Assembly (NCBI GenBank): GCA_965222235.1
Contig: OZ244939.1
Coordinates: 493,942-557,941 of the forward strand
DNA from: Minisyncoccota bacterium
GTDB lineage: Bacteria > Patescibacteriota > Minisyncoccia > Phycocordibacterales > JABAAK01
DNA length: 64,000 bases
Direction of reading: 5' to 3'
Positions within the stretch are counted from its first letter, which is position 1; every line of letters starts with the position of its first letter. The notes below the pieces were generated by a model. That model did not search any database and was not told the DNA's origin. It saw nothing but the letters and a program-made list of their open reading frames with translations. Positions 10,296-45,388 of the stretch are shown one piece after another. The translations under genes and the position numbers were made by a program.

Positions 10296-11439
10296 ACATT
10301 CAAACTTCTAATTGAACACCTGTCAGTTTGTAATATGCCATCCTCTGGAGATTGACACCGGTCATGCGGTAGAATACCTCGTAAGGGGTCAGACCAGTAA
10401 GGCGTTTCCTGGGACGGGTATTCAATAGGTACTCAACCTTGGCAATGTCACGGTCATTGCTTTTGTCAAAGTCAGTCCCCTTCGGGAAACACCGACGGAA
10501 CAATCCGTTGGTGTTCTCGTTTGATCCTCTTTCATGAGAGCAGTACGGATGGGCGAAGTAGCAGGAGAGACTGAGTTCTTTTTCAACGGTGCGGTACCCC
10601 CTATTCTCCGCCCCTCTGTCCTGGGTGAGGGTCTTGCGGTATCTCGGAGGGACAGCGCGCATTCGTCTGATGATTGCCGCGTCACAGGACTCAGCGGTAC
10701 CGTCTTTTGTTTTCTCAAAGAATGCCAGACCGGTCATCTTTTCATTCATACTCTTTACCCTAACGCTGCTTTTCCTTGAGAGCATGGTGTCACCTTCCCA
10801 ATGACCGATTACCCCCTCTATCCCCGGTCTCTCCTCAATGGAGGGCAAGGCCGCTCTTCGTTCTGTTTTCTGTGTGTTTCTCACTCCTTGCCGTATGCGT
10901 CTCTTCCTTCTTCTCGGCAGAAGAGACCGTAAGTCTAGATACCCCGGTTTCACGATACCGTGTCCGCTTTGGTGAATCTGCGCATATATGAAGGTATATA
11001 TCGTCTCATGAGATACCCGCATGGTTGTGTCCTCCGGAAACTCCCGGGGAAGACGAATACTCACCTGCTCGGGAGACCATCCTTCCTCCATCTTCTCCCG
11101 CACATACCCAAGGAGTGCTCTGTCGGTCAGCACTCCTTTCCTCCCCCGGGTGTGTATCCTTTTCTCTGCTTCCCGCTGTGCCCTCAGCGCGCAGTACCGT
11201 CCGACTCCTTTTCTCGGTTTTCCCCCTATTTCCCGATGTATGGTTCCCGGTGACCTGCCCAACTCTTTCGCTATCTCCCGCAGGGATCTCTTGTCAGCAC
11301 AGTATCTCACTTCAATACTACTCCGTTCATGAATATTCAGACGGGTGAACGGTTCCCGTCTCTTTTTCTTTGCTTTTGTCATATGTCTCCAGTATTACTT
11401 GGTATATGACAGGTGTTCTATTATTTGTTTGAACTTAGG
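10296..11439 (-). mobile_element. IS30-family insertion sequence (~1.14 kb) with imperfect terminal inverted repeats
   Basis: Encodes a complete IS30 transposase. The ends share an imperfect inverted repeat with a conserved core (left ...ttcaaac..gaacacctgtca..; right ..tgacaggtgttc..gtttgaac..). The right-end 51 bp recurs identically at 20718-20768. Confidence 0.75.
10300..11382 (-). CDS. IS30-family DDE transposase
   Basis: N-terminal HTH followed by a DDE region with the IS30 signature IGHWEGDTM ... LTQDRGAEN ... SNENTNGLFRRCFPKGTDF. Confidence 0.9.
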   Translation of the reverse strand: MTKAKKKRREPFTRLNIHERSSIEVRYCADKRSLREIAKELGRSPGTIHREIGGKPRKGVGRYCALRAQREAEKRIHTRGRKGVLTDRALLGYVREKMEEGWSPEQVSIRLPREFPEDTTMRVSHETIYTFIYAQIHQSGHGIVKPGYLDLRSLLPRRRKRRIRQGVRNTQKTERRAALPSIEERPGIEGVIGHWEGDTMLSRKSSVRVKSMNEKMTGLAFFEKTKDGTAESCDAAIIRRMRAVPPRYRKTLTQDRGAENRGYRTVEKELSLSCYFAHPYCSHERGSNENTNGLFRRCFPKGTDFDKSNDRDIAKVEYLLNTRPRKRLTGLTPYEVFYRMTGVNLQRMAYYKLTGVQLEV

Positions 11440-13203: not shown

Positions 13204-14235
13204 TTATTCGTTAATTTTTTTCCGTATTTCCCGCTCAAGATCATGTTTGAGCTTGGTGTTTTCCGCAAGGGTCGTGCGCGCCGCGTCATAGCCGCGGCCC
13301 AGTTTCTCCTCGCCGTATGAATATGACGCACCGCCTTTCTTCTCAACCAGTCCGTATTTTTCTCCGAGCGCAAGCAGTTCACCCTCGCGGGTGATGCCCT
13401 CGTTGTACATCAGGTCAAACTCGGCGGTGCGATACGGCGCACCGACCTTATTCTTCACCACTTTGACACGCACCCGGTTGCCTTTCACTTCATCGCCCTT
13501 CTTGATCTGTGCGATGCGCCGCACATCCATTCTCAGCGAGCTGTAGAATTTCAGCGCCTTGCCGCCCGGGGTGGTTTCTGGATTGCCGAACATAACGCCG
13601 ATCTGCATGCGGATCTGGTTGATAAATACGATTGCCGTTGAGGAACGGGCGACAATCGCCGTGAGCTTTCTGAGCGCCTGGCTCATCAGCCGCGCCTGGC
13701 GCCCGACATGATGTTCTCCCATATCCCCCTCAATCTCCGCCTTCGGCGTGAGCGCGGCGACAGAGTCAATGACGATGACATCCACGGTGTTGGTGCGCAC
13801 GAGCGAATCGGTAATATCCAGCGCCTGCTCTCCGGTATCCGGCTGGGATACCAGAAGATCTTTCACTTTCACGCCGATGCGACGCGCATATTCCGGATCA
13901 AGCGCGTGCTCGGCATCCACGAAAGCACACACACCGCCCAGTTTCTGTGCCTCGGCGACAATGTGGAGTGCGAGTGTTGTCTTACCGGACGATTCAGGGC
14001 CGAATATTTCAATGATTCTTCCGCGCGGCACACCGCCGACACCGATTGCGGCATCCAGTCCGAGGGAGCCGGTGGGAACCGCATTAATTTTTTGCTTCGG
14101 CATCTCGCCCATGATCATGATGGAGTCCTCGCCGAATTTTGTTTTAATATTCGCGAGTGCGTTCCGTAACACTTCGCTGTCTTTCTTCGCTTCCTTCTTA
14201 TCTCTCGTCTTCGCTGTTTTCTTCGTTGATGTCAT
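13204..14235 (-). CDS. recA: recombinase RecA with a Lys-rich N-terminal extension
   Basis: Walker [14 protein letters not shown], the L1/L2 loop regions and canonical RecA N-terminal helix ([15 protein letters not shown]). Preceded by ~20 Lys-rich residues. Confidence 0.95.
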
Positions 14236-30971: not shown

Positions 30972-31793
30972 GTGACAAAGAATATAGTAAAGCGAAGCGG
31001 CGCTCTGGTTACTTTTGACCGGTCAATTCTGGAACGTTCCCTGCGCCGTGCCGGCGCACCGGGTTCTTTGGCGAAGCATATATCAACTGAGGTTGAAAAA
31101 GACATGAAAGACGGTGATACAACCGGTGAGGTGTACAGAAAGGCATTTGAGATGCTCTCCGGCAATGCCAGGCATGTTGCCATGCGGTATTCGCTGAAGA
31201 AGGCGCTGTTCTCCCTCGGTCCGACCGGATTTCCGTTTGAAAAGTTCGTTGCGGAACTGTTCAGAAGAAAGGGGTACGTCGTGGCGACGAATGTGCACCT
31301 CAAAGGCCACTGTGTCAGTCATGAGGTTGATGTGCTGGCAACCGAGCCGGAACGGATAGCGATGGAGGTGAAATTTCACAATGATATGCACACACGCTCC
31401 GATGTCAAAGCGGTTCTATATATCAAGGCGCGGTTTGACGATCTGACCGGCACCGGCTTTTTCAAAAAAGGGGTGGTTGACCGCTGTATTCTGGTAACGA
31501 ACACGAAGTTCACAAAAAACGCCATTGCCTACGCGAACTGCTCGGGCGTGTCGCTGCTCGGGTGGGGGTATCCGTTCCGCAGCAACCTGCAGACATATAT
31601 TGAGGAGGTGGACGCACACCCCGTCACCTGCCTGCCGTCCGTCACCGTCTCGCTCGCGAAGAATCTGTTCGCCGAGGGCATCATCACCTGCAGGGGGCTG
31701 CTGGAGAATCAGGCGGTGCTTGAGGCGCTGCCGAATGCCGATCAGATCATCACTGAGGCGGAACTGCTGTGCGTGCCGTCGGGAAGACGCTGA
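30972..31793 (+). CDS. ATP-cone domain fused to a restriction-endonuclease-like (Mrr_cat-like) domain
   Basis: N-terminal ATP-cone (IVKRSGALVTFDRSILERSLRRAG) followed by a region with E/D...K catalytic-like residues (HEVDVLATE...EVKFHN). Confidence 0.45.
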   Translation: MTKNIVKRSGALVTFDRSILERSLRRAGAPGSLAKHISTEVEKDMKDGDTTGEVYRKAFEMLSGNARHVAMRYSLKKALFSLGPTGFPFEKFVAELFRRKGYVVATNVHLKGHCVSHEVDVLATEPERIAMEVKFHNDMHTRSDVKAVLYIKARFDDLTGTGFFKKGVVDRCILVTNTKFTKNAIAYANCSGVSLLGWGYPFRSNLQTYIEEVDAHPVTCLPSVTVSLAKNLFAEGIITCRGLLENQAVLEALPNADQIITEAELLCVPSGRR

Positions 31794-31821
31794 GAAGCGG
31801 AATAGCGTATACTGTTCATAT

Positions 31822-32586
31822 ATGAATGTTCACGCGACCCGCAGGCGGAATATATTTAATCCGGCAGGCGATGCGCCGTTTGAGCTCTCCCGCAGCAAGA
31901 TACAGCTGTTTTTGAACTGTCCCCGCTGTTTCTATCTTGACCGCCGCTTAGGCGTCGCACCGCCGAGAGGGTTTCCGTTCAATATCAATGAGGCGGTGGA
32001 TATATTGCTCAAGAAGGAATTTGATACCTTTCGAGAAAAACAGGAAGCGCATCCGCTGCTGCGTGAACATGACCTGTCATTAGTGCCGTTCCGGCACGAT
32101 GATCTGAACACCTGGCGCGATCCGTTCAAAGGCATTCGGTATCATCACACCGAATCCAACTTCATTGTCTTCGGCGGCGTGGATGATGTGTGGACAGATG
32201 CGGACGGCACGCTCTCTATTGTTGACTACAAGGCGACCAGCAAGGACGGGGAAGTGGACATCTCCGCTAAATGGCAGCGGTCGTACAAAAATCAGATTGA
32301 GATATATCAGTGGCTGTTCAGAAACAATACGTTCACTGTTTCGGACACGGGGTATTTCGTCTATGTAAACGGCGATCGTGATCGCGAGGCGTTCAACGGT
32401 ACGTTGTTCTTCAAAACCAAGCTCATCCCCTACACCGGCAGCGATACATGGATACCGGATGTGCTGATGCGCGCAAAAGAAACATTGACGGACGATGCGA
32501 TTCCTCCGGCAGGAACATACTGCGATTTTTGCCCGTACCGCGATGCGGCGGGGAAGTCATTCCGTGTGCATATGACCGGAGCCTGA
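31822..32586 (+). CDS. PD-(D/E)XK-family nuclease (Cas4/RecB-like fold) with N- and C-terminal Cys clusters
   Basis: GVDDVWTDADGTLSIVDYKATSK gives a D...D-x-K catalytic signature. CPRC near the N-terminus and CDFCPYRD at the C-terminus suggest an Fe-S or Zn site. Start taken at the in-frame ATG at 31822 within ORF 31525..32586. Confidence 0.55.
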   Translation: MNVHATRRRNIFNPAGDAPFELSRSKIQLFLNCPRCFYLDRRLGVAPPRGFPFNINEAVDILLKKEFDTFREKQEAHPLLREHDLSLVPFRHDDLNTWRDPFKGIRYHHTESNFIVFGGVDDVWTDADGTLSIVDYKATSKDGEVDISAKWQRSYKNQIEIYQWLFRNNTFTVSDTGYFVYVNGDRDREAFNGTLFFKTKLIPYTGSDTWIPDVLMRAKETLTDDAIPPAGTYCDFCPYRDAAGKSFRVHMTGA

Positions 32587-32601: not shown

Positions 32602-35600
32602 TTACCGCGCACAATTTCCCGGGTCAGTAACACTACTACAAGTACCACCAGATATTGACCATCTTCCGTTAGAACAACGAACTGTTGCAGATCCACCGGT
32701 TTCAGTACCACAAGAACTATAGTTAATTGTATCAGTTACAGATCTAATTGATCCATTACTACCCCTTTGAACGGATCCAGAGCACCATCTTGTAGAACAG
32801 TATTTGTCTTTGCCGCTCCCGGAACATGAGGTTACTCTCCAAGATACATTTTTCCTTTCACAATCACCCGGATATCTGCAAAACTTACTGCAAGTAGAAG
32901 TGGCATCCTTACAACCAACTCCTCCCCAGAAACCAAATCTATCTGTTCTCCATCTTACAGTGCAACTGCCACCCAAAGCTGGTTCACAACATCGTCTTTG
33001 GCCTGCATGCCCACCGCATTCATTTGTTTTACAACACGAACCAGTGGTTACAACACTTCCTCCGGGACCACAAGGATTTTTCACCACACTACACAAACTA
33101 GTGAGCCGTCTCCCCGCTGAAGCCGGACCTTGACACCTCCATTTCTCATGGGTGGAGGTGTCATGTTGGGTTGTCTGTACCGCACTCCAACCACTCTTGC
33201 ATCTGTCTCGGGTTGTACCACACCGACCAATTATACTACATGCCCCCGTCGTCTTGGTACCCGTTTTGGATCTGGATTGGCTTGTGGATTTTGAGGACGA
33301 ACAGCCCGTGCAGGAGCGTGTCCGTGTCTGGGTAAAGCTGACACCTTTACACTCTGTTGATGTCGCCGGTGTCCAGGATGTCCAGGAGCCGCAGGAGCAG
33401 GTGGAGCTGCAGCTCGTATCACTCACACTCCAGCTCCCGGTATCACACGAAAAAGTCGCCGAACCGGTATAGTAGCTTTTATCATTGGTCGCACTGAATG
33501 AGGAGCCGTGAGATTTCAGGGATACATAATCACTGCAGTTGGTGGACCAGGTCTGTCTTCCTCCGGTACATCTGCAGCCGACCGCGGAGGCAGACTTGGT
33601 GCCGGTTGTGGATCTGGATTTTGGTGTACTTGACGGACAGCCCGTGCAGGTGCGTGTCTGGGTAAGGGAGTTCCCGGAGCACGCTGTTGATCTCGCCGGT
33701 GTCCAGGAGCCGCAGGAGCAGGTGGAGCTGCAGCTCGTATCACTCACACTCCAGCTCCTGGTATCACACGAAAAAGTCGCCGAACCGGTATAGTAGCTTT
33801 TATCATTGGTCGCACTGAATGAGGAGCCGTGAGATTTCAGGGATACATAATCACTGCAGTTGGTGGACCAGGTCTGTCTTCCTCCGGTACATCTGCAGCC
33901 GACCGCGGAGGCAGACTTGGTGCCGGTTGTGGATCTGGATTTTGGTGTACTTGACGGACAGCCCGTGCAGGTGCGTGTCTGGGTAAGGGAGTTCCCGGAG
34001 CACGCTGTTGATCTCGCCGGTGTCCAGGAGCCGCAGGAGCAGGTGGAGCTGCAGCTCGTATCACTCACACTCCAGCTCCCGGTATCACACGAAAAAGTCG
34101 CCGAACCGGTATAGTAGCTTTTATCATTGGTCGCACTGAATGAGGAGCCGTGAGATTTCAGGGATACATAATCACTGCAGTTGGTGGACCAGGTCTGTCT
34201 TCCTCCGGTACATCTGCAGCCGACCGCGGAGGCAGACTTGGTGCCGGTTGTGGATCTGGATTTTGGTGTACTTGACGGACAGCCCGTGCAGGTGCGTGTC
34301 TGGGTAAGGGAGTTCCCGGAGCACGCTGTTGATCTCGCCGGTGTCCAGGAGCCGCAGGAGCAGGTGGGCGGCGCGACATATCTCTCACAGTTCTCGTCGG
34401 TATATGTCAGCACCGTGCTGCTGCAGCTGTAGGAGACGGATCCCCGGGAGCCGCCACTGGTGTCTTCAAAGGTGCCCGAGCTGCCGTGTGCGACTTTGGT
34501 ATAGTTCGGGGGGTAGCAGGTACGGCTTCCCTCTGTCCATGAGGTGGGGGTGCATGTGCAGGTTTTGGTGCCGGAGATTGTTCTGGTTTCTGTTCTGTTT
34601 GAAGCGGTGGTTGTGGTACCGTTTTCTCTGCTGCACTCAGTGCCGCCGTTCCGTGGTGATGGGTTATTACACCTGCGGGTCTGGGTGACCGTGTCCGTTG
34701 AGCAGGTCAGCGAGGTTGAGGGGGTCCAGGAGGACCAGCCGCCGTGTGTCACAACCGGCGCGACATATCTCTCACAGTTCTCGTCGGTATATGTCAGCAC
34801 CGTGCTGCTGCAGCTGTAGGAGACGGATCCCCGGGAGCCGCCACTGGTGTCTTCAAAGGTGCCCGAGCTGCCGTGTGCGACTTTGGTATAGTTCGGGGGG
34901 TAGCAGGTACGGCTTCCCTCTGTCCATGAGGTGGGGGTGCATGTGCAGGTTTTGGTGCCGGAGACCTCCTCCTGTTCTATACCACAGGCACTGCCGGAGG
35001 GACAGGTGCGGGTCTGGGTGACCGTGTCCGTTGAGCAGGTCAGCGAGGTTGAGGGGGTCCAGGAGCTGCAGGAGCTCTCAATACATCGGTTCCGTGAGGC
35101 GGAGCAGGTTGGTGAATGTCCGTCGCAGGTTCCTTCACATACCCAGTTATAGGTATAGGTACCGTCAGGAGCAGCAGCGTCATTAGCGTTGCCGGCGGCG
35201 CATTGATTCCTGCCGGAGCCACATTGACCGGCAACGGGTGTACAGTGCGTATGCGATTTTTCACACAAACTGGAAGATATTCCGCTCGGGTGATATTCGA
35301 AGAAGGAGCACAGTTCTTCGGCGGTGGTATTGCCGACAAAGACATCACTGTTGGTATTGTTAGTGATATTTCTGCATCGCCACACACCGTTATGCGTTGC
35401 TGATACCTCCTCGGCACTATTGGCTTCAACCCGCACCCCTCTGCCGGAAGAAACGAGACCAGGGTTTGCTATGGTGGTACAGCTTTCATTGCCATGATAC
35501 TGAGTATCAGCCGTTACCACATTGGCGGAGGACGTGGCAATCAGAATACATACAAGAGAGAAAAGTCCCAGACATAATGCCAATTTGGGATGTGCTACAT

Positions 35601-35613
35601 GCATATGTACCAT
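32602..35613 (-). CDS. secreted cysteine-rich tandem-repeat protein, the only full-length family member with ATG start and signal peptide (copy A)
   Basis: True ATG at 35613 and signal peptide MHVAHPKLALCLGLFSLVCILIATSSA, then a ~100-aa unique N-terminal region. Two ~115-aa repeats follow, then three perfect 107-aa repeats (CSCGSWTPARSTACSGNSLTQTRTCTGC...DTSCSST) plus a variant terminal unit and a unique Cys-rich C-terminal tail. Ser/Thr/Cys content is very high. Confidence 0.8.
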   Translation of the reverse strand: MVHMHVAHPKLALCLGLFSLVCILIATSSANVVTADTQYHGNESCTTIANPGLVSSGRGVRVEANSAEEVSATHNGVWRCRNITNNTNSDVFVGNTTAEELCSFFEYHPSGISSSLCEKSHTHCTPVAGQCGSGRNQCAAGNANDAAAPDGTYTYNWVCEGTCDGHSPTCSASRNRCIESSCSSWTPSTSLTCSTDTVTQTRTCPSGSACGIEQEEVSGTKTCTCTPTSWTEGSRTCYPPNYTKVAHGSSGTFEDTSGGSRGSVSYSCSSTVLTYTDENCERYVAPVVTHGGWSSWTPSTSLTCSTDTVTQTRRCNNPSPRNGGTECSRENGTTTTASNRTETRTISGTKTCTCTPTSWTEGSRTCYPPNYTKVAHGSSGTFEDTSGGSRGSVSYSCSSTVLTYTDENCERYVAPPTCSCGSWTPARSTACSGNSLTQTRTCTGCPSSTPKSRSTTGTKSASAVGCRCTGGRQTWSTNCSDYVSLKSHGSSFSATNDKSYYTGSATFSCDTGSWSVSDTSCSSTCSCGSWTPARSTACSGNSLTQTRTCTGCPSSTPKSRSTTGTKSASAVGCRCTGGRQTWSTNCSDYVSLKSHGSSFSATNDKSYYTGSATFSCDTRSWSVSDTSCSSTCSCGSWTPARSTACSGNSLTQTRTCTGCPSSTPKSRSTTGTKSASAVGCRCTGGRQTWSTNCSDYVSLKSHGSSFSATNDKSYYTGSATFSCDTGSWSVSDTSCSSTCSCGSWTSWTPATSTECKGVSFTQTRTRSCTGCSSSKSTSQSRSKTGTKTTGACSIIGRCGTTRDRCKSGWSAVQTTQHDTSTHEKWRCQGPASAGRRLTSLCSVVKNPCGPGGSVVTTGSCCKTNECGGHAGQRRCCEPALGGSCTVRWRTDRFGFWGGVGCKDATSTCSKFCRYPGDCERKNVSWRVTSCSGSGKDKYCSTRWCSGSVQRGSNGSIRSVTDTINYSSCGTETGGSATVRCSNGRWSISGGTCSSVTDPGNCAR
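33390..34420 (-). repeat. near-perfect 321-bp tandem repeat array (3 units plus flanking variant units) inside copy A
   Basis: The six-frame track shows identical ORF translations recurring with a 321-bp period on both strands (33516/33837/34158 and 33539/33860/34181). Confidence 0.85.
34797..35308 (-). repeat. inverted-repeat arm L (~512 bp, within 5' coding region of copy A)
   Basis: Near-identical in reverse complement to 35672-36183. Both strands yield identical ORF translations in the track (34931..35152 vs 35824..36045, and 35116..35403 vs 35669..35860). Confidence 0.85.
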
Positions 35614-35671
35614 ATTACTTTATTTTATACAGAAACATACACACTGATGTGTAAAAATAGAAATTTACCTA
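35309..35671 (-). promoter_or_regulatory. unique 363-bp segment between the inverted arms carrying copy A start codon, signal-peptide/N-terminal coding and upstream AT-rich putative promoter (candidate invertible segment)
   Basis: Contains A's ATG (35613) with upstream minus-strand sequence ...tgtataaaataaagtaatATG (TATAAA/TAAAGT -10-like elements). It is flanked on both sides by the ~512-bp inverted arms. Confidence 0.5.
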
Positions 35672-36183
35672 TTCTTCGAATATCACCCGAGCGGAATATC
35701 TTCCAGTTTGTGTGAAAAATCGCATACGCACTGTACACCCGTTGCCGGTCAATGTGGCTCCGGCAGGAATCAATGCGCCGCCGGCAACGCTAATGACGCT
35801 GCTGCTCCTGACGGTACCTATACCTATAACTGGGTATGTGAAGGAACCTGCGACGGACATTCACCAACCTGCTCCGCCTCACGGAACCGATGTATTGAGA
35901 GCTCCTGCAGCTCCTGGACCCCCTCAACCTCGCTGACCTGCTCAACGGACACGGTCACCCAGACCCGCACCTGTCCCTCCGGCAGTGCCTGTGGTATAGA
36001 ACAGGAGGAGGTCTCCGGCACCAAAACCTGCACATGCACCCCCACCTCATGGACAGAGGGAAGCCGTACCTGCTACCCCCCGAACTATACCAAAGTCGCA
36101 CACGGCAGCTCGGGCACCTTTGAAGACACCAGTGGCGGCTCCCGGGGATCCGTCTCCTACAGCTGCAGCAGCACGGTGCTTGA
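35672..36183 (+). repeat. inverted-repeat arm R (~512 bp, forms the 5' end of copy B)
   Basis: Reverse complement of 34797-35308. Homology begins at ttcttcgaatatcacccgag (FFEYHPSGISSSLCEKSHTHC in both genes) and ends after ...SYSCSSTVL, where A and B diverge. Confidence 0.85.
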
Positions 36184-37198
36184 ATACAGCAATGTTGACT
36201 GCCACACCGCTACCAAAGCCTGCCTCCCGACAAGACGGACCTGGCTCAATACCTGCAGTGGTATTAGTCCGGCACGGGCTCACAACAGCAGTGTTGAAGT
36301 GACCAATGATCAGTCAGGTTACACCGGCGAAGCTTTCTTTTCGTGTGATAACGGGAGCTGGAGTGTGAGTGATACGAGCTGCAGCTCCACCTGCTCCTGC
36401 GGCTCCTGGACACCGGCGAGATCAACAGCGTGCTCCGGGAACTCCCTTACCCAGACACGCACCTGCACGGGCTGTCCGTCAAGTACACCAAAATCCAGAT
36501 CCACAACCGGCACCAAGTCTGCCTCCGCGGTCGGCTGCAGATGTACCGGAGGAAGACAGACCTGGTCCACCAACTGCAGTGATTATGTATCCCTGAAATC
36601 TCACGGCTCCTCATTCAGTGCGACCAATGATAAAAGCTACTATACCGGTTCGGCGACTTTTTCGTGTGATACCGGGAGCTGGAGTGTGAGTGATACGAGC
36701 TGCAGCTCCACCTGCTCCTGCGGCTCCTGGACATCCTGGACACCGGCGACATCAACAGAGTGTAAAGGTGTCAGCTTTACCCAGACACGGACACGCTCCT
36801 GCACGGGCTGTTCGTCCTCAAAATCCACAAGCCAATCCAGATCCAAAACGGGTACCAAGACGACGGGGGCATGTAGTATAATTGGTCGGTGTGGTACAAC
36901 CCGAGACAGATGCAAGAGTGGTTGGAGTGCGGTACAGACAACCCAACATGACACCTCCACCCATGAGAAATGGAGGTGTCAAGGTCCGGCTTCAGCGGGG
37001 AGGCGGCTCACTAGTTTGTGTAGTGTGATAACTGGAGTCAGGCCCAGGTGTGGTTCTTGGAAGAGACCACATAATCCGTGTCCCCGTGGTGAAGAGCAAA
37101 ATAGCCGGAAAGCAGATACCTGTAAATATAGATGGGAATGTAGAGGGACCGGAATTTATCAAACGCAAGTCGTGTCATGCAGCCGAAAAGAAGGATAA
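35708..37198 (+). CDS. 5'-truncated paralog (copy B) of the Cys-rich repeat protein with its own distinct C-terminal tail
   Basis: The track 'M' at 35708 is TTG. The frame is open upstream only to a TGA at 35645, with no ATG or signal peptide. The body matches A residues ~100-260, then one 107-aa repeat, a variant unit and a unique tail (...CSVITGVRPRCGSWKRPHNPCPRGEE...). Confidence 0.6.
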   Translation: MCEKSHTHCTPVAGQCGSGRNQCAAGNANDAAAPDGTYTYNWVCEGTCDGHSPTCSASRNRCIESSCSSWTPSTSLTCSTDTVTQTRTCPSGSACGIEQEEVSGTKTCTCTPTSWTEGSRTCYPPNYTKVAHGSSGTFEDTSGGSRGSVSYSCSSTVLEYSNVDCHTATKACLPTRRTWLNTCSGISPARAHNSSVEVTNDQSGYTGEAFFSCDNGSWSVSDTSCSSTCSCGSWTPARSTACSGNSLTQTRTCTGCPSSTPKSRSTTGTKSASAVGCRCTGGRQTWSTNCSDYVSLKSHGSSFSATNDKSYYTGSATFSCDTGSWSVSDTSCSSTCSCGSWTSWTPATSTECKGVSFTQTRTRSCTGCSSSKSTSQSRSKTGTKTTGACSIIGRCGTTRDRCKSGWSAVQTTQHDTSTHEKWRCQGPASAGRRLTSLCSVITGVRPRCGSWKRPHNPCPRGEEQNSRKADTCKYRWECRGTGIYQTQVVSCSRKEG

Positions 37199-37293
37199 AT
37201 ATAGTAAGTATGCGTACGGAAAAACAAAATTATGCGGAATCATTGCCATGAAAACAAGTCCCGCATGTATTAAAAAATAACTACACATTAAAT

Positions 37294-38565
37294 ATGAACA
37301 AAATAATTCTAATAATTTTGCCGTTTGCGTTACTGATCATTACAGCGGTATGGTTCAACATCAGGATAAGTAGTGAGCGCGACGGAATTGAACAAACAAT
37401 ACAAGAACTGCCAGATCCGCATGAAGCACACTCAGTATCGTATCTGACAAACAACGGTATTGCACTGTTCGGCTCTCTACGACATACACACAGCGGAACA
37501 ACAGATAATCCTGAGGAGGAAGACGGGCATGATGATGAAAATGATGAAGACGACGATGCCATCTCAGAGATATTCCTCTTCTCGCCAGATAACATCCTGC
37601 TTGATTCATTACGGGACGAAACCAACACCGGAATGGGACGAAGTGTTATTGGGTTTGATGATACGCTTCTTATTTCATTCCCGGAAGCGAATGATCGTTC
37701 CGGTTTTATCGGAGTATACCGGATTACCGATGAAAAACTGAAGAAAGTCGGTGAAATCAAATCATCTGATGACGGTAATGAACTTGACTTCGGCGGATCA
37801 ATGGATATAGCCGGAACCCTGTTATTCGTTGGTGCTGATGACAGGTCGGTTAACGGCAAGGAGGAGGTTGGCGGCGTGTATATCATAGACTTGAAAAGTG
37901 GGAGGGAGGTATCGGCGTTCAGTCCGATTGTCAGTGAAGAACATGAATTCGGAGCGAAAGTATTTGCACATGCGGATACCAAAACATTGTTTGTTGCCTC
38001 CGAGGGTGTTATCAGTTCCGCAATCGGAGGCGGATCTGTGGATGTCTTTTCATACTCGGATGCCGGTGAATTGACACATCTGCAACACATTGCTCGTCCT
38101 GACAATTTTGCAGGTTTGTTTGGTCACTCACTGACGCACACGGATGACTACCTGCTCATAGGGTCTATTTCAGAGCTGGAGAACGAAGACCGGCGGATGT
38201 CAGGAACACGCGGCAGAGTGTATGTGTATAGGCGTAACGGAGATATGTACCGGTATGTCAGCCATACGGAGGGCACGGAACATTCTAACTTCGGCTTTGC
38301 GATGAAATATGATAATGATACAGATGAGATTCTCATTTCGTCACCGACAATGAACACGATAGGGGTCTATGAAATCACCCGGGACACACTGCAACTCAAA
38401 TACGAAATCATCCATGAAGCAACATTTTTTGGTCATTCCTTTGATATCAGTGGTGGGCGACTGGCATCCACTGCACTGGGCACCGAGATTGGTGACGAGA
38501 AGTTCGTCTTCTGCAGGAAGAATGGTGCTGGGAAATACACCAACTGTGTGGTGAACGGTAAATGA
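37294..38565 (+). CDS. membrane-anchored FG-GAP beta-propeller protein (paralog P1)
   Basis: ATG start, N-terminal TM anchor and an acidic tract EEEDGHDDENDEDDD. Repeated FG-x-x motifs (FGGSMDIAG, FGAKVFAH, FGHSLTHTDDYLLIGS, FGFAMKYD, FGHSFDISGGRLAS) are typical of FG-GAP/integrin-alpha-like propellers. About 70% identical to 44111..45388. Confidence 0.6.
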   Translation: MNKIILIILPFALLIITAVWFNIRISSERDGIEQTIQELPDPHEAHSVSYLTNNGIALFGSLRHTHSGTTDNPEEEDGHDDENDEDDDAISEIFLFSPDNILLDSLRDETNTGMGRSVIGFDDTLLISFPEANDRSGFIGVYRITDEKLKKVGEIKSSDDGNELDFGGSMDIAGTLLFVGADDRSVNGKEEVGGVYIIDLKSGREVSAFSPIVSEEHEFGAKVFAHADTKTLFVASEGVISSAIGGGSVDVFSYSDAGELTHLQHIARPDNFAGLFGHSLTHTDDYLLIGSISELENEDRRMSGTRGRVYVYRRNGDMYRYVSHTEGTEHSNFGFAMKYDNDTDEILISSPTMNTIGVYEITRDTLQLKYEIIHEATFFGHSFDISGGRLASTALGTEIGDEKFVFCRKNGAGKYTNCVVNGK

Positions 38566-38569
38566 CATA

Positions 38570-39682
38570 TCATCTCCTCACACATCCTATCTGATATCGA
38601 TACGCATTACCACGGCACCTCCAGTTATCGCTCCCCCAGATTCCGCCGGAGTGATCATGTTCATAACAGGTTTCAACAGCCCTATCTCTCCATCCATGAC
38701 CGCCGCTGTTGGAAGAATCATTATCCTTACACCCCGGACGACCGTCACAGAATACTGAGTAAGTTGCTGACCAATCCCTATATTGTGTCCAGCCGGAAGG
38801 ACAGTTGAGACTTTTCGGGGCTCGTGAATCGGCGGTACATATAGAAACATTACCGCATGTTTGAGGTGCTTGATGCCTTCTGCAACATCGATCACCCTTA
38901 TCGCAATTGTACCACTCTAAACAAGTTCCTGCACCACAGTCCTTACCGGTACAGGGGCGACACGCATATCTGGAACTAGAACGAGTGGCGTTATTACACT
39001 GACCGGAATAATGTCCTGTCGCCAATCTGCCACTCGGCGTTGGGTTGGAAAACTTACATATCTTACAACTCCCTGTATTATACAGAGATCCCCCGGCCGC
39101 CGCACACTCCGCCTCCCTACCATTGTTACCGCATAGATACTTTATATCACATGCCCCCGTCGTCTTGGTACCCGTTTTGGATCTGGATTGGCTTGTGGAT
39201 TTTGAGGCCGGACAGCCCGTGCAGGAGCGTGTCCGTGTCTGGGTAAAGCTGACACCTTTACACTTTGTTGATGTCGCCGGTGTCCAGGATGTCCAGGCGC
39301 CGCAGGAGCAGGTGGAGCTGCAGCTCGTATCACTCACACTCCAGCTCCCGGTATCACACGAAAAAGTCGCCGAACCGGTATAGTAGCTTTTATCATTGGT
39401 CGCACTGAATGAGGAGCCGTGAGATTTCAGGGATACATAATCACTGCAGTTGGTGGACCAGGTCTGTCTTCCTCCGGTACATCTGCAGCCGACCGCGGAG
39501 GCAGACTTGGTGCCGGTTGTGGATCTGGATTTTGGTGTACTTGACGGACAACCCGTGCAGGTGCGTGTCTGGGTAAGGGAGTTCCCGGAGCACGCTGTTG
39601 ATCTCGCCGGTGTCCAGGAGCCGCAGGAGCAGGTGGGCGGCGCGACATATCTCTCACAGTTCTCGTCGGTATATGTCAGCAC
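38570..39682 (-). CDS. 5'-truncated paralog (copy C) of the Cys-rich repeat protein with a third distinct C-terminal Cys-rich domain
   Basis: The track start at 39682 is GTG inside the family sequence (VLTYTDENCERYVAPPT). Nucleotide homology to A begins abruptly at ...cctgttctata| (A coordinate ~34965). Contains one 107-aa repeat, a variant unit and a ~190-aa unique Cys-rich tail. Confidence 0.55.
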   Translation of the reverse strand: MLTYTDENCERYVAPPTCSCGSWTPARSTACSGNSLTQTRTCTGCPSSTPKSRSTTGTKSASAVGCRCTGGRQTWSTNCSDYVSLKSHGSSFSATNDKSYYTGSATFSCDTGSWSVSDTSCSSTCSCGAWTSWTPATSTKCKGVSFTQTRTRSCTGCPASKSTSQSRSKTGTKTTGACDIKYLCGNNGREAECAAAGGSLYNTGSCKICKFSNPTPSGRLATGHYSGQCNNATRSSSRYACRPCTGKDCGAGTCLEWYNCDKGDRCCRRHQAPQTCGNVSICTADSRAPKSLNCPSGWTQYRDWSATYSVFCDGRPGCKDNDSSNSGGHGWRDRAVETCYEHDHSGGIWGSDNWRCRGNAYRYQIGCVRR

Positions 39683-39926
39683 CGTGCTGCTGCAGCTGTA
39701 GGAGACGGATCCCCGGGAGCCGCCACTGGTGTCTTCAAAGGTGCCCGAGCTGCCGTGTGCGACTTTGGTATAGTTCGGGGGGTAGCAGGTACGGCTTCCC
39801 TCTGTCCATGAGGTGGGGGTGCATGTGCAGGTTTTGGTGCCGGAGACCTCCTCCTGTTCTATATCTATAATGACTATTGCTGTGGATTCATCATGTCAGT
39901 TCATTCTATTTTGAATATGTAAAAGA

Positions 39927-39952
39927 AGAGAGCCCCCGCGTATGCGGGGGCT
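39927..39952 (-). terminator. rho-independent terminator of the subtilase gene
   Basis: agagcccccgcg-ta-tgcgggggctct is a perfect 12-bp GC-rich stem, followed on the minus strand by ttcttttac. It lies 20 nt past the subtilase stop. Confidence 0.6.
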
Positions 39953-39972
39953 CTGAAAGAGCGAGGAGCAGG

Positions 39973-41595
39973 TCAGAAACGGAGACGATATGCTGCATGG
40001 AAGTCGCTGGTGTCGCCGGCGCTGAACTGGCTGTGGTTGGCCATGATCTCGAGAGATTCATGCTCACCCAGGTTGTAGGTCGCGGCGATGCCGGCGCGGC
40101 GGTTCCATCCGTCGCTTCCCTTGATGTCAACATCTCCGAAGACGGTGTCCGCGGAGCCGCCGAGGAACTTGCTGAGGTCCCCCGACAGATTGACTGAGAA
40201 GTTGCCGTCGGTGTACACATCGTACTGCCCGCTGAATCCGAGTGCCCGACCCCGTGCCTTGTGGATGAGGTCGGTCGGATCAGATTGCTGCCAGGTCATC
40301 CTGACGAACAGATTCTGATGCCCGAAGTCGGCATCAAAGGACATCGCTCCGCGATACCCGAACTCACGTCCGAGACCGAAGAACTCGTTCCGGCTCCCGT
40401 ATGCCACGCGACCGAAGAGGTCGTTTGCCATGGCATATCCGACACCGGCGACATATTCGTCGTCATTGCCGGCAACAATCGGGAACAGTCCGACCGCCTT
40501 TCCGTTTTCCAGAATCGGCACACCCGGGGTGAACTGGAACAGTCCAAGAGATGTGTGGCTCAGGGTGACCTCGCGGGCATGACCGCTGTTTGCATGGGTG
40601 AATGTCCCGGAGATGCTTGCTTTCCCAGGGAATGTCATAGCCCGCATGTGCGCGGGGGTAACACTGCCGATGACACTGTCCACGCCGACCACCTGCCAGC
40701 GACCGTCACGCATGACGGTCATGCAGGTGAAGTCTGCCCGACCGAGACCTTCCAGGGCCGATTCCCTGATCGCGCAGGCTTTCGCCAGCTTGATCAGGTT
40801 GTTCCGGGAGGTGTCCGGAAACACCATCAAGACGGATCCCAGAGCAGCCGCGACCTGCGGTACGGATACCGAGGTGCCGGGAAGCACCGCGTCACCCAAC
40901 TCAAACCTGAACGGTGCATAGATGCACTGGTCACCAACACCCTCGCAGCTCACCGAATACGGGTCGCGAACAACCCGACCGTTCTCCACCGCGTATCCGG
41001 CGACGAACAGAACCCTGTCCTCCCGGATTGCGGCAAGAATGTCCGGATCGGTTATGTTCTTGAGATCAACCTCGGAATTGGGATCAATGCCGTTCTGTCC
41101 GTTGCCCGTTCCCTGGATGAGCGCAAACGGTGTTTGCTGACGATGCAGTTCTTGAAGTGCACCCCTGTCGACAGCAAATGAGCCCGAAACGATCTTGGTG
41201 GTGGACGGGATGACATCGGCGTAGACTCCTGCTGGGCCGCCGTGACCTGCGGTAAGGCTGGAATCGATGACGGTGAAAGGCTCGCCGTCGCCACAGCCGA
41301 CGATGAATGCCTTGCAGGAAATCTGTGCCATCTGGCTCGCATGACCGTTCGGGTCGTCCCGATCGGATGCAAACTCAAGGATGGTGTACATCCCCGCCAC
41401 CTCAGCAACGGTTGCCTTCAGTTCGCTCCGCGGGATGCGACCGATGCCGGGAAGTGGACCTGTACCGACGGCCGGTACTTCTGGACCCGGCGGCACTGGC
41501 GGTTTCACGGGCGGTGGATCGGTTCTGGTATTGCCACCACCACCACAACCAGCAAGGAAGAGCAGCATGAGTGCTGCGGAAAGGTATTGTTTCAC
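39973..41595 (-). CDS. subtilisin-like (S8) serine protease lipoprotein with C-terminal beta-rich domain
   Basis: Lipoprotein signal with lipobox (V/M)KQYLSAALMLLFLAGC. The start is probably GTG at 41595, preceded by a gagagga Shine-Dalgarno; the track's TTG start is at 41625. S8-like motifs: Asp region TVIDSS, His region AGHGG, oxyanion region VAGYAVENG and Ser motif GTSVSVPQVAAALGSV. A C-terminal ~170-aa domain of alternating hydrophobic residues ends in ...YRLRF. Confidence 0.55.
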   Translation of the reverse strand: MKQYLSAALMLLFLAGCGGGGNTRTDPPPVKPPVPPGPEVPAVGTGPLPGIGRIPRSELKATVAEVAGMYTILEFASDRDDPNGHASQMAQISCKAFIVGCGDGEPFTVIDSSLTAGHGGPAGVYADVIPSTTKIVSGSFAVDRGALQELHRQQTPFALIQGTGNGQNGIDPNSEVDLKNITDPDILAAIREDRVLFVAGYAVENGRVVRDPYSVSCEGVGDQCIYAPFRFELGDAVLPGTSVSVPQVAAALGSVLMVFPDTSRNNLIKLAKACAIRESALEGLGRADFTCMTVMRDGRWQVVGVDSVIGSVTPAHMRAMTFPGKASISGTFTHANSGHAREVTLSHTSLGLFQFTPGVPILENGKAVGLFPIVAGNDDEYVAGVGYAMANDLFGRVAYGSRNEFFGLGREFGYRGAMSFDADFGHQNLFVRMTWQQSDPTDLIHKARGRALGFSGQYDVYTDGNFSVNLSGDLSKFLGGSADTVFGDVDIKGSDGWNRRAGIAATYNLGEHESLEIMANHSQFSAGDTSDFHAAYRLRF

Positions 41596-41831
41596 GTCGG
41601 TTTCCTCTCGTGTGTGAATGGACAAGTATGATTTACTCTAATGCCTATTTTACCACACTATCTATTTATATACAATTTTTGTGGATTTTGCCCTGAAACC
41701 TTTTAGATACAAAGGCTATCTGTCCGTGCTGTGATGTGTCGCAGAAATCGTTTCCCAAACGGACACTGTGTCTAGAATTCTTCTCTCTTGTATGTATTCT
41801 GATTGCCGCATCCTCCACCAATGTGGCAATG

Positions 41832-44067
41832 ATGGACAGAGGGAAGCCGTACCTGCTACCCCCCGAACTATACCAAAGTCGCACACGGCAGCTCGGGCAC
41901 CTTTGAAGACACCAGTGGCGGCTCCCGGGGATCCGTCTCCTACAGCTGCAGCAGCACGGTGCTTGAATACAGCAATGTTGACTGCCACACCGCTACCAAA
42001 GCCTGCCCCCCGACAAGACGGACCTGGCTCAATACCTGCAGTGGTATTAGTCCGGCACGGGCTCACAACAGCAGTGTTGAAGTGACCAATGATCAGTCAG
42101 GTTACACCGGCGAAGCTGTCTTTTCGTGTGATAACGGGAGCTGGAGTGTGAGTGATACGAGCTGCAGCTCCACCTGCTCCTGCGGCTCCTGGACACCGGC
42201 GAGATCAACAGCGTGCTCCGGGAACTCCCTTACCCAGACACGCACCTGCACGGGCTGTCCGTCAAGTACACCAAAATCCAGATCCACAACCGGCACCAAG
42301 TCTGCCTCCGCGGTCGGCTGCAGATGTACCGGAGGAAGACAGACCTGGTCCACCAACTGCAGTGATTATGTATCCCTGAAATCTCACGGCTCCTCATTCA
42401 GTGCGACCAATGATAAAAGCTACTATACCGGTTCGGCGACTTTTTCGTGTGATACCGGGAGCTGGAGTGTGAGTGATACGAGCTGCAGCTCCACCTGCTC
42501 CTGCGGCTCCTGGACACCGGCGAGATCAACAGCGTGCTCCGGGAACTCCCTTACCCAGACACGCACCTGCACGGGCTGTCCGTCAAGTACACCAAAATCC
42601 AGATCCACAACCGGCACCAAGTCTGCCTCCGCGGTCGGCTGCAGATGTACCGGAGGAAGACAGACCTGGTCCACCAACTGCAGTGATTATGTATCCCTGA
42701 AATCTCACGGCTCCTCATTCAGTGCGACCAATGATAAAAGCTACTATACCGGTTCGGCGACTTTTTCGTGTGATACCGGGAGCTGGAGTGTGAGTGATAC
42801 GAGCTGCAGCTCCACCTGCTCCTGCGGCTCCTGGACACCGGCGAGATCAACAGCGTGCTCCGGGAACTCCCTTACCCAGACACGCACCTGCACGGGCTGT
42901 CCGTCAAGTACACCAAAATCCAGATCCACAACCGGCACCAAGTCTGCCTCCGCGGTCGGCTGCAGATGTACCGGAGGAAGACAGACCTGGTCCACCAACT
43001 GCAGTGATTATGTATCCCTGAAATCTCACGGCTCCTCATTCAGTGCGACCAATGATAAAAGCTACTATACCGGTTCGGCGACTTTTTCGTGTGATACCGG
43101 GAGCTGGAGTGTGAGTGATACGAGCTGCAGCTCCACCTGCTCCTGCGGCTCCTGGACACCGGCGAGATCAACAGCGTGCTCCGGGAACTCCCTTACCCAG
43201 ACACGCACCTGCACGGGCTGTCCGTCAAGTACACCAAAATCCAGATCCACAACCGGCACCAAGTCTGCCTCCGCGGTCGGCTGCAGATGTACCGGAGGAA
43301 GACAGACCTGGTCCACCAACTGCAGTGATTATGTATCCCTGAAATCTCACGGCTCCTCATTCAGTGCGACCAATGATAAAAGCTACTATACCGGTTCGGC
43401 GACTTTTTCGTGTGATACCGGGAGCTGGAGTGTGAGTGATACGAGCTGCAGCTCCACCTGCTCCTGCGGCTCCTGGACATCCTGGACACCGGCGACATCA
43501 ACAGAGTGTAAAGGTGTCAGCTTTACCCAGACACGGACACGCTCCTGCACGGGCTGTTCGTCCTCAAAATCCACAAGCCAATCCAGATCCAAAACGGGTA
43601 CCAAGACGACGGGGGCATGTAGTATAATTGGTCGGTGTGGTACAACCCGAGACAGATGCAAGAGTGGTTGGAGTGCGGTACAGACAACCCAACATGACAC
43701 CTCCACCCATGAGAAATGGAGGTGTCAAGGTCCGGCTTCAGCGGGGAGGCGGCTCACTAGTTTGTGTAGTGTGATAACTGGAGTCAGGCCCAGTTGTGGT
43801 CCTTCAACTACATATAACATTGCCAGACCATATCAATGCATTCGATGGGGTACTTGTACACAGGGTAAATCTGGTGAAAGTGTGAGCTGTTGCAAGCAAT
43901 ATAGAGGCGGGCTGGGTAGTAGCGCAACTTCTTTGTGCTCAAGTGGTGTTGGATCGGGTTGGAGAAAAAAACCCGGTGATACTACTTGTAAATGGGTTTG
44001 GGAATGTAGAGGAACTGGAGCTTACAGCAGTGAAGTTAGAGTTTGCGGGAGGAGAAAGAAAGATTAG
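41832..44067 (+). CDS. 5'-truncated paralog (copy D) of the Cys-rich repeat protein with four perfect 107-aa repeats and a fourth distinct C-terminal tail
   Basis: Nucleotide homology to A/B starts at 41832 immediately after an in-frame TGA. The track 'M' at 41959 is GTG; there is no ATG or signal peptide. Four identical 321-bp units (ORF periodicity 42102/42423/42744/43065) are followed by a variant unit and a unique tail (...CIRWGTCTQGKSGESVSCCKQYRGG...). Confidence 0.6.
42150..43440 (+). repeat. perfect 321-bp tandem repeat array (4 units) inside copy D
   Basis: The same translations recur every 321 bp on both strands in the track, and are identical to the units in copies A, B and C. Confidence 0.85.
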
Positions 44068-44110
44068 GATGATTCCGATTATTATTTATATTAATTAAAG
44101 TAAAAAACAT

Positions 44111-45388
44111 ATGACTAAAAAGAAAATAATTATCACCGTATTATCACTCGCATTGATTACCTTTGCAATGTTTGTCCTTATGGCAAACAACCGGACATCC
44201 GACACAGATATAATATATGGTCTGCCGAATCCACATGATGCACACTCGGTTTCGCACCTAACAGACGGTGGTGTTGCGCTACTCGGCTCTCTTCGACATT
44301 TGCATGAAGAGACATATTCAGAGGAGGATGAGTACGGGCACGAAAATGAAGAAGAGGAGGATGAAGAGGAAGATGACAATACCGTATCAGAAGTATTTCT
44401 CTTCTCGTCTGAAGGAATTTTACTTGATTCACTGAAAGATGAGACTAACACAGGAATGGGACGAAGTGTCGTCGGGTTTGACAATACAATCCTCATCTCA
44501 TTCCCGGAAGCGAATGATCGTTCCGGTTTTATCGGAATATACCGAGTTAGCAGCGGGAAACTTGAAAAAACTGGTGAGATCAGACCGTCTGAGGATGGTA
44601 ATGAACTTGACTTCGGTGGATCAATGGATATAGCAGGCGATCTGTTGTTCATCGGAGCTGATGACAGATCAGTTGGCGACAGAGAAGAGGTGGGCGGCGT
44701 GTATGTCTTAGATCTGAATAGCGGGAGGGAGTTGTCAATTTTCAGTCCGGATGCCGTTGAAGAGCATGAATTCGGGGCAAAAGTACTCGCGCATGAGGAT
44801 ACCGGGACATTGATTGTTGCCTCAGAAGGCATCGTTAGCGCGGTAGGCGGAGGCGGGTCTGTGGATATTTTCTCATATTCAGATGCCGGGACACTGACTT
44901 ATCTGCAGCATATTCCTCACCCCGACAACTTCGCCGGCTTGTTTGCCCATTCATTAGTACATACAGATGACCATTTGCTTATAGGATCTGTTTCAGACTT
45001 GGAGAATGTTGAGAATGAGCAATTGTCAGGAACGCACGGCAGGGTGTATATGTATAAACGAAACGGGGATTTGTACAAGTATGTCGGCTACACGCAGGGC
45101 ACAAAACACTCAGGATTTGGGTTTGAAATGAAATATGACAATGAAACAGACGAGGTTCTTATTTCTTCGCCGGCGATACACACAATAGGGGTGTATACAA
45201 TCGTACAAGATGCCCTGCGACACCAATACAACATCACCGCCAACGCAATATTCTTCGGTCATTCTTTTGATATAGAAGGCGATCGACTGGCATCCACTGC
45301 ACTGGGTATTGAGATTGGTGACGAAAAGTTCGTCTTCTGTGAAAAAACCATTACCGGTCGGTACGGCAATTGTACGGAGAAGAAATAG
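44111..45388 (+). CDS. membrane-anchored FG-GAP beta-propeller protein (paralog P2)
   Basis: ATG start, TM anchor, an acidic tract EEDEYGHENEEEEDEEEDD and the same FG-GAP-like repeat pattern as P1. Lies immediately downstream of copy D, as P1 lies downstream of copy B. Confidence 0.6.
   Translation: MTKKKIIITVLSLALITFAMFVLMANNRTSDTDIIYGLPNPHDAHSVSHLTDGGVALLGSLRHLHEETYSEEDEYGHENEEEEDEEEDDNTVSEVFLFSSEGILLDSLKDETNTGMGRSVVGFDNTILISFPEANDRSGFIGIYRVSSGKLEKTGEIRPSEDGNELDFGGSMDIAGDLLFIGADDRSVGDREEVGGVYVLDLNSGRELSIFSPDAVEEHEFGAKVLAHEDTGTLIVASEGIVSAVGGGGSVDIFSYSDAGTLTYLQHIPHPDNFAGLFAHSLVHTDDHLLIGSVSDLENVENEQLSGTHGRVYMYKRNGDLYKYVGYTQGTKHSGFGFEMKYDNETDEVLISSPAIHTIGVYTIVQDALRHQYNITANAIFFGHSFDIEGDRLASTALGIEIGDEKFVFCEKTITGRYGNCTEKK

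Follow-up and report, generated by a model that had tools for sequence, protein, structure and literature searches.

A full-length gene for a secreted cysteine-rich protein and its alternately oriented, 5'-truncated copies as a candidate inversion-switching locus in the Patescibacteria

Introduction

Bacteria of the candidate phyla radiation (CPR), or Patescibacteria, are ultra-small and mostly uncultured, and many of them are thought to be attached to host cells. To our knowledge, the mechanism by which they vary their surfaces or change partners is essentially unknown, and a literature search on CPR/Patescibacteria returned no description of phase variation or invertible elements. Here, we describe a locus in a stretch of 64,000 nucleotides (nt) of DNA from a Minisyncoccota bacterium, hereafter called the window, in which a full-length gene for a secreted cysteine-rich protein (A) lies beside three 5'-truncated copies of itself (B, C and D) and two genes for membrane-anchored beta-propeller proteins (P1 and P2). 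An earlier note on this DNA had drawn attention to B with P1 and D with P2 as duplicated two-gene modules, and had compared them to the orphan C-terminal modules of polymorphic systems such as contact-dependent inhibition (CDI) and Rhs. The orientation of the copies points instead to inversion switching, a possibility that was not taken up in that note.

Results

A full-length gene and three truncated copies in alternating orientation

The locus consists of gene A, its three copies and the two propeller genes, with an open reading frame (ORF) for a lipoprotein-like protein located between C and D (Table 1). Both of the modules named in the earlier note exist: B ends at 37198 and is followed by P1 at 37294 after a gap of 95 nt, and D ends at 44067 and is followed by P2 at 44111 after a gap of 43 nt. 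The start that had been given for D was upheld, with homology to A from 41832 and a stop upstream, whereas the start of B had to be moved from a TTG codon at 35708 to position 35659, where the homology begins and just upstream of which there is an in-frame stop. Beyond the coordinates covered by that note, B and D turned out to be two of three truncated copies of full-length A, the third being C.

The orientation changes from each copy to the next (A-, B+, C-, D+), with A and B arranged head-to-head and C located between P1 and D. The genes C and P1 are convergent, with the stop of C located 4 nt from that of P1, and a distance of 15 nt separates the stop of A (32602) from the end of a convergent gene at 32586. 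At this 3' end, A is adjoined by an Mrr_cat restriction-endonuclease-like ORF and an ORF for a Cas4-like PD-(D/E)XK nuclease (30972-32586, + strand). The copies B, C and D start at three different points inside the A sequence, each of them right after an in-frame stop. They have neither a start codon nor a signal peptide, yet their frames are open for 512, 431 and 745 codons, respectively, into tails of their own.

Table 1. Positions, strands and main characteristics of the features discussed in the text, numbered from the first nucleotide of the window.
Feature	Position	Strand	Description
A	32602..35613	-	Secreted Cys-rich protein of 1003 amino acids (aa); complete ORF; presumed expression copy
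Unique 341-nt segment between the A/B inverted-repeat arms	35318..35658	-	A codons 1 to ~102 (signal peptide, N-domain) plus 45 nt upstream with a -10-like box
321-nt tandem array in A	33379..34367	-	3.1 copies, 99% matches; main homology substrate in common with D
B	35659..37198	+	5'-truncated; homology from A residue ~103; variable tail of 56 aa after 37027
P1	37294..38565	+	423 aa; N-terminal transmembrane helix, acidic tract, FG-GAP_2 beta-propeller
C	38570..39863	-	5'-truncated; same orientation as A; own Cys-rich tail of 192 aa (~38573-39148); no partner gene
Terminator-like hairpin	39929..39954	-	11 pairs, 9 of them GC; 3' of the 550-aa gene and just upstream of C
550-aa lipoprotein-like ORF	39973..41625	-	Between C and D, in the DNA that would be flipped by an A×D inversion
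D	41832..44067	+	5'-truncated; 4.2 units of 321 nt; variable tail of 97 aa after 43773
321-nt tandem array in D	42121..43479	+	4.2 copies, 99% matches
P2	44111..45388	+	425-aa paralog of P1
recA	13204..14235	-	Pfam RecA, E=1e-132; candidate recombination machinery, with a presumed tie to the cassette locus

Domain composition of the cysteine-rich protein

The A protein is organized, from the N-terminus onward, into a signal peptide, a unique N-domain, a first K module, thrombospondin-repeat-like (TSR-like) and sushi-like units, three units of 321 nt, a second K module and a tail of 160 aa. Of the proteins encoded by the four genes, only A is present in a collection of 5.8 billion proteins, as protein P0152 (1000 aa, with the second ATG used as the start); that B, C and D are not represented there would fit with their annotation as pseudogenes. 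No Pfam family matched A at E≤0.1. A comparison to Pfam at E≤10 gave no match for any of the tails of A, B, C and D and nothing meaningful for the repeat units or the 550-aa ORF, and none of the tails had a homolog among the 5.8 billion proteins. Likewise, sequence searches against PDB gave no matches. A structure predicted with AlphaFold2 without an alignment for A residues 170-470 reached a predicted local distance difference test score (pLDDT) of 45, and was not used for fold searching.

One unit of A, at residues 274-341, contains the signature CNNPSPRNGGTEC and aligned to the thrombospondin type 1 (TSP1) repeats of protein P0153 (pairwise E=2e-6; 41% over 56 aa); it had no match to the Pfam TSP1 family (PF00090). 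The remaining units in A are merely TSR-like, with a TQTRT motif. Repeats of the TQTRT type are common to A, to protein P0155, which has a pilin-like N-terminus, and to protein P0154, which is encoded beside TrbI/T2SSE genes. P0154 is a protein of 611 aa with TSR-like repeats of 44 aa (132 nt) of the TQTRT type, and its gene (locus L001, 9835-11670; gammaproteobacterial metagenome-assembled genome (MAG) GCA_026706285.1) is located at the end of a TrbI/T2SSE cluster that resembles a Tad system or a type IV secretion system. We looked for the cassette layout at L001 and L002, the loci of two distant TSR-like proteins, and found no inverted repeats at either of them, and tandem repeats at L001 that were just 61-77% alike.

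A search for homologs of A among proteins yielded only weak TSR-like repeat proteins, and a scan of metagenomes yielded none. A concatenation of the N-domain and the four tails retrieved A itself and nothing else from the 5.8 billion proteins.

The K module is shared with another surface protein candidate in the window. A pilin-like ORF, which starts at about 61952 on the + strand and continues beyond the end of the window at 64000 (>683 aa), has a type IV pilin-like N-terminus (GFTLLEMLITISIIVIIV) followed by at least five tandem cysteine-rich K modules of about 46 aa (PGQC...C..G...D...Y.W.C.G....C), the same type of module as in A, B and D. It is located directly 3' of pilM, pilB, pilC and a pilin gene, and probably encodes a pilus-associated adhesin. 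A hidden Markov model of the K module, built from the pilin-like ORF, recovered the first K module with an i-E-value of 5e-8 in B and 1e-7 in A, the second K module at about 2e-5, and, with weak matches, the end of tail B (1.4e-3) and that of tail D (1e-2), all of these values being calculated for a search space of four sequences. The matches make the tails look like alternative binding modules, assembled from components that also make up the remainder of the protein.

Taken together, the signal peptide, the density of cysteines, the TSP1-like unit, the TQTRT-type repeats and the occurrence of the K module in the pilin-like ORF suggest that A may be an extracellular, adhesin-like binding protein.

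Near-identical blocks that end at a sharp junction

The copies are connected by 20 pairs of inverted repeats with lengths of 153-1283 nt and identities of 93-100%. The longest of these are shared by A and D (1283 nt, ~100% identity) and by A and B (690 nt and 543 nt), and C is related to B or D by repeats of 510 nt. The arms of the A/B inverted repeat are located at 34775-35317 and 35659-36201, and mismatches occur only at their edges, leaving some 510 internal nt identical. In the blocks that A, B and D have in common, there are 0-3 mismatches over 690 nt; for C, the number is 14 over 510 nt, and nine of these mismatches are clustered at the 3' edge. The pattern of similarity among the copies is not due to chance.

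The identity drops from 100% to 50-75% at a single junction, located at 33085 in A, 37027 in B and 43773 in D. The sequence at the junction, ...RRLTSLCSV|, contains no known motif. That the tails of B and D are related but divergent, as previously proposed, was borne out: both start with ITGVRP and end with the motif C-K-x-x-W-E-C-R-G-T-G...C, and there are about 40 extra residues in D. Over 56 codons, the two tails have a synonymous divergence (dS) of ~1 and a ratio of nonsynonymous to synonymous divergence (dN/dS) of ~0.48, and the terminal cysteine motif has been retained. As judged from their sequences, the tail-plus-propeller modules beyond the junction are old duplicates. Identical DNA immediately 5' of so old a duplication would not have persisted without continuing gene conversion among the copies, which ends at the junction between the constant and the variable part.

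Two divergent propeller genes

The description of P1 and P2 as membrane-anchored proteins with an acidic tract and FG-GAP-like propeller repeats agrees with our results. P1 matched the Pfam family FG-GAP_2 (PF14312) with 24.6 bits, against a cut-off of 23; P2 had no direct match. An AlphaFold2 model of P1 (predicted TM-score 0.71, mean pLDDT 68) contains an N-terminal helix (residues 2-30), a disordered acidic tract (residues 66-86) and a beta-propeller. The model was compared to PDB with Foldseek, which returned single-domain propellers such as Sec12 and lactonase-like proteins (TM-score to the target 0.54-0.67, E ~1e-8), but all of these were generic propellers, with no specific functional relative among them. 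The earlier estimate of about 70% identity between P1 and P2 was a fair one, the identity being 66% for the amino acids overall, 72% over the propeller and ~75% at the nucleotide level.

A profile built from P1 and P2 (HMMER) matched 1871 of 1.84 billion representative proteins at E≤1e-3, and only P1 at E≤1e-30. The closest distant match had an E-value of 4e-22, and all 10 matches that were sampled were FG-GAP_2 repeat proteins. No orthologs were identified: a word-indexed search of the 5.8 billion proteins returned only P1 and P2, and scans of genome contigs and metagenome contigs returned no relatives. We also considered the possibility that the locus was of phage origin, and rejected it, since neither P1 nor A had a tblastn match in 50,697 phage records.

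Between P1 and P2, dS is ~1.2, the nonsynonymous divergence (dN) is ~0.24 and dN/dS is ~0.2 (0.16 in the propeller). By this measure, both are functional genes that have evolved under purifying selection. The ectodomains have a net charge of -38 in P1 and -50 in P2, and the cysteine-rich protein is basic, with the tails of B and D being the most basic per length. The combination of an acidic ectodomain and a basic tail provides a faint lead for a contact between the tail and the propeller protein. The two propeller proteins may be tail-specific partners that serve, for example, as a membrane dock for the basic tail, or they may act on their own at the surface, their genes having been copied together with the adjacent ones. 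Long, serine-rich antisense ORFs are also present inside P1 (37281-38105, - strand; 274 aa) and P2 (44095-44832, - strand; 245 aa), and have probably arisen as a side effect of the acidic tract and the codon usage.

In-frame products of simulated inversions

Given the alternating orientation and the long near-identical blocks, recombination of A with B or with D would be expected to result in inversion of the DNA between the two copies. We simulated such inversions as reciprocal recombination inside the shared blocks. The A×B inversion gave ORFs with a signal peptide and tail B of 611 or 899 aa, and the A×D inversion gave ORFs of 833-1154 aa with tail D, the length depending on the register of the repeats. 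An A×B inversion followed by recombination with C resulted in an ORF of 696 aa with tail C. In the simulated B and D states, P1 or P2 was located directly downstream on the same strand. Since each of the two flanking arms is an inverted copy of the other, the context upstream of the flipped 5' segment would remain about 97% the same.

Programmed inversions that alter genes, and which have been validated, are characterized by long inverted repeats, closely spaced coding sequences and a partner that is missing the stretch between the transcription start site and the first repeat, and no other single feature predicts real cases as strongly as the gene-pseudogene asymmetry (PMC9881135). In the locus examined here, the inverted repeats are located inside the coding sequence of A and inside nearby partner coding sequences of opposite orientation, and the partners do not have the region from the start to the first repeat. 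The arrangement of A to D thus has all three features, in support of inversion.

Promoter-like and terminator-like sequences

A -10-like element, GTATAAAAT, is located 14 nt 5' of the ATG codon of A, and another -10-like box, TGTAAAAAT (35650-35658, + strand), faces into B. The region at 35636-35658, between the start of A and the start of the homology in B, contains a short palindrome (ACACA-CTGA-TGTGT) and TGTAAAAAT, and may be a divergent promoter or an operator. There is a promoter-like (-10-like) site 5' of D at 41649-41676. P2 has a -10-like hexamer at position -31, and P1 only a weak one. No terminator-like sites were predicted in the gaps between B and P1 and between D and P2. The predicted hairpin upstream of C (Table 1) would shield C from read-through transcription.

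A scan with the sigma-70 consensus gave promoter-like sites that were no more common than in shuffled sequence. In a -10 scan of our own, covering 24-32 gene starts in the window, a TATAAT-like hexamer, often with TG, was present within 45 nt of the start in 62% of the cases, compared to 12% of random positions. These boxes are usually located 8-30 nt 5' of the start and Shine-Dalgarno sequences are nearly absent, which suggests that the mRNAs have short leaders or are leaderless.

The genes around the locus

The window is chromosomal and contains the housekeeping genes ileS, recA, ftsK, leuS, mltG, mnmA and alaS, a gene for a BshB1-like deacetylase and type IV pilus genes. The best matches to RecA were MAGs of the Patescibacteria/CPR (Paceibacterota, Nomurabacteria, Saccharibacteria and others), with identities of 70-72%, as compared to at most 64% for proteobacterial matches. 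Among the larger ORFs scanned in the window, none had a domain of a tyrosine or serine recombinase, an integrase or a resolvase/invertase, with small ORFs not exhaustively covered. No tRNA genes or Rfam families were found within the window.

A few additional observations concern the neighboring genes. In the ileS product (3103-6648, + strand), a histidine-phosphatase domain (His_Phos_1) is inserted at residues 519-703, and the alanyl-tRNA synthetase (49468-51321, + strand) consists of just 617 aa and does not have the usual C-terminal part. There are two ORFs of 360 aa, at 1585-2667 and 10300-11382 (- strand), and an IS30-type HTH_38 domain was recognized in the latter only. The 550-aa ORF between C and D has a lipobox (LLFLAGC) and a raised local GC content (0.575), and no match in Pfam or PDB. 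Its C-terminus (...HAAYRLRF) resembles that of an outer-membrane beta-barrel protein, an unexpected finding in a CPR bacterium.

Discussion

We favor, with moderate confidence, the interpretation that the locus varies the C-terminus and the number of repeats of a secreted adhesin-like protein by nested inversion and gene conversion, and that B with P1 and D with P2 are two of three silent cassettes. According to this hypothesis, A would be the sole expressed copy and alone supply the promoter-proximal start codon, the signal peptide and the N-domain, while B, C and D would provide promoter-less alternative tails with different numbers of 321-nt units. RecA-type recombination of A with B or with D would turn around the DNA in between, and the 5' end of A would thereby be joined in frame to tail B or tail D, with the unique segment between the A/B arms being the piece that flips. 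Tail C would be reached by a second, nested inversion. Non-reciprocal gene conversion would hold the shared blocks identical. The propeller genes P1 and P2 would be old paralogs for surface proteins that travel with tails of the B type and the D type, so that in the switched state one of them would be placed directly 3' of the expressed gene and possibly be co-expressed with it as a tail-specific partner.

The closest mechanistic precedent may be the sap locus of Campylobacter fetus, in which cassettes of the gene for the S-layer protein are reportedly rearranged by nested DNA inversion in a RecA-dependent manner, according to work by Dworkin and Blaser in the 1990s. Like the sap locus, the locus described here contains a cluster of homologs of a candidate surface protein gene in opposite orientations with a long identical block in common, and a single putative expression element between them. 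In both cases, nested inversions by homologous recombination expose different C-terminal parts without the need for a dedicated recombinase, although here only by simulation. However, the sap cassettes are complete with a conserved 5' end and the promoter alone is flipped, whereas the cassettes in the present locus lack the 5' end, and the flipping segment would carry the promoter-proximal region, the signal peptide and the N-domain. The present locus also differs in that the shared block consists of internal tandem repeats, in that two of the cassettes have an extra gene, and in its CPR host.

For the cassettes that combine a tail with a partner gene, the best precedent would be the G segment of phage Mu and the corresponding C segment of phage P1 (Sv-U versus S'v-U'), in which pairs of tail-fiber and assembly-protein genes are flipped by the serine invertases Gin and Cin. 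In these segments, inversion exchanges both the variable C-terminus of a binding protein and an accessory gene that is linked to it on the downstream side. Unlike these segments, the present locus has no phage context, and the partner is a membrane propeller. Programmed inversions and shufflons, such as the R64 pilV/Rci system and the hsdS genes of type I restriction-modification systems, are similar in that inverted repeats are located in a long coding sequence and in a nearby partner without a start, and in that C-terminal specificity segments are exchanged (PMC9881135). Classical shufflons have short repeats and a neighboring recombinase, whereas the repeats described here are near-identical over 0.5-1.3 kb, no recombinase domain was found in the ORFs that were scanned, and the protein family that would be targeted is new.

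Several considerations weigh against the inversion hypothesis. The locus is known in one orientation from one assembly, and no alternative orientation has been observed. The adhesin function is based on motifs, with no Pfam family and no usable structure prediction for A. Gene conversion without programmed switching could account for the pattern of identities, and the location of the propeller genes next to the tails could be the passive outcome of a segmental duplication; moreover, a propeller gene is found beside only two of the four tails and is therefore not required by the system. Finally, promoters are poorly defined in this lineage, and given the -10-like boxes, B and D could be transcribed, and P1 and P2 expressed independently or by read-through transcription.

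The main alternative hypothesis, which we regard as rather unlikely, is that the locus has arisen by passive duplication and decay. The copies B, C and D would then be dying pseudogene fragments that undergo incidental gene conversion from A, and P1 and P2 would be independently expressed propellers that were copied alongside, without any switching and without a relationship between the tails and the propellers. This explanation is consistent with the absence of a recombinase from the larger ORFs and of population evidence, with the purifying selection on P1 and P2 as stand-alone genes, with the AT-rich, -10-like sequence 5' of P2 and with the presence of a propeller gene next to just half of the tails. 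It also draws on the fact that conservation of the pairing cannot be shown, since no orthologs were found. However, all three unique tails are still open (56 codons in B, 192 in C and 97 in D), and the cysteine framework of the tails of B and D has been kept at a dS of ~1. Furthermore, all three truncations remove exactly the start and the signal region and stay in frame, and the gene-pseudogene asymmetry to which they give rise is the top predictor of real programmed inversions (PMC9881135). The alternating orientation also argues against passive decay, in that it enables every tail to be reached by inversions that conserve the DNA; if A were instead to recombine with C as a direct repeat, DNA would be lost.

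We consider it very improbable that the locus encodes a polymorphic toxin system similar to CDI, Rhs or MafB, in which the tails would be toxins, P1 and P2 their cognate immunity proteins, and the truncated copies orphan pairs of C-terminal domains and immunity proteins that are able to replace the tail of A. The similarity to such systems that was proposed in the earlier note stands with regard to the layout, in which a constant region gives way at a sharp junction to a variable C-terminus, two of the copies have a linked 3' gene and the truncated copies are homologous to the main gene. Orphan cdiA-CT/cdiI and rhs-CT/rhsI modules are indeed 5'-truncated, homologous to the main gene and equipped with alternative C-termini and a linked gene (PMC3150448), and the silent fhaB/mafB cassettes in Neisseria follow the same pattern of truncated copies (PMC1797815). 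The similarity does not extend to toxins and immunity. The cassettes in these systems are located downstream of the main gene and are characterized by recognizable toxins, small cytoplasmic immunity proteins and an immunity gene for each C-terminal domain, none of which holds for the locus examined here. The tails did not match any toxin family and P1 and P2 did not match any immunity family in Pfam, and tail B consists of just 56 aa and resembles the K module found elsewhere in the protein and in the pilin-like protein. The tails of A, which is presumed to be expressed, and of C have no downstream gene, with only 15 nt and 4 nt, respectively, to the convergent genes, and would be self-poisoning if they were toxins. 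As already pointed out in the earlier note, P1 and P2 are larger than typical immunity proteins (423 and 425 aa), and they are predicted to be extracytoplasmic propellers. In addition, neither a delivery domain of the two-partner secretion, Rhs or PAAR type (Pfam at E≤0.1) nor, on reading of the junction, a demarcation motif (VENN, PxxxxDPxGL) was detected in A, and disulfide-rich tails would be ill-suited to translocation into the cytoplasm of a target cell.

Least credible of all is an assembly artifact, in which the identical blocks and the layout of the copies would be due to a repetitive gene having been mis-assembled or over-polished in a genome that was derived from a metagenome. In favor of this explanation, the assembly of perfect repeats of 0.7-1.3 kb is difficult, the numbers of units (3.1 versus 4.2) could be wrong and no independent copy of the locus was present in any of the collections searched. 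However, the locus is located on a contig of 641 kb, the copies have unique flanks and differ in truncation point and tail, P1 and P2 are clearly distinct (75% nucleotide identity), and mis-assembly would not give rise to four distinct in-frame tails.

In its most far-reaching form, the inversion hypothesis holds that a RecA-driven, nested-inversion shufflon without a recombinase of its own flips the 5' end of a eukaryote-like (TSR/sushi-like), cysteine-rich adhesin onto alternative C-terminal binding modules, and for two of these co-switches a cognate, highly acidic membrane propeller by which the basic tail is docked or presented, possibly altering the specificity for the host or the attachment. 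This would be the first programmed surface-variation system in an episymbiont of the CPR/Patescibacteria, although we think that it is unlikely that all parts of this scenario are correct.

Even if there is no switching, the locus represents a clean case of gene conversion that is restricted to one side of a sharp junction between a constant and a variable part. If the locus does switch, about 13 kb, all of it orphan sequence, would be devoted to combinatorial variation of one secreted adhesin-like protein by general recombination alone, and A, the tails and P1 and P2 would be a concrete target for studies of attachment specificity. The combination of a tail and a partner gene in one cassette would extend the S/U principle of phage Mu to a cellular surface protein. 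Should the tails and the propellers be co-switched, the tip of the adhesin and its partner would change together, possibly shifting the specificity of these bacteria for their hosts or for attachment.

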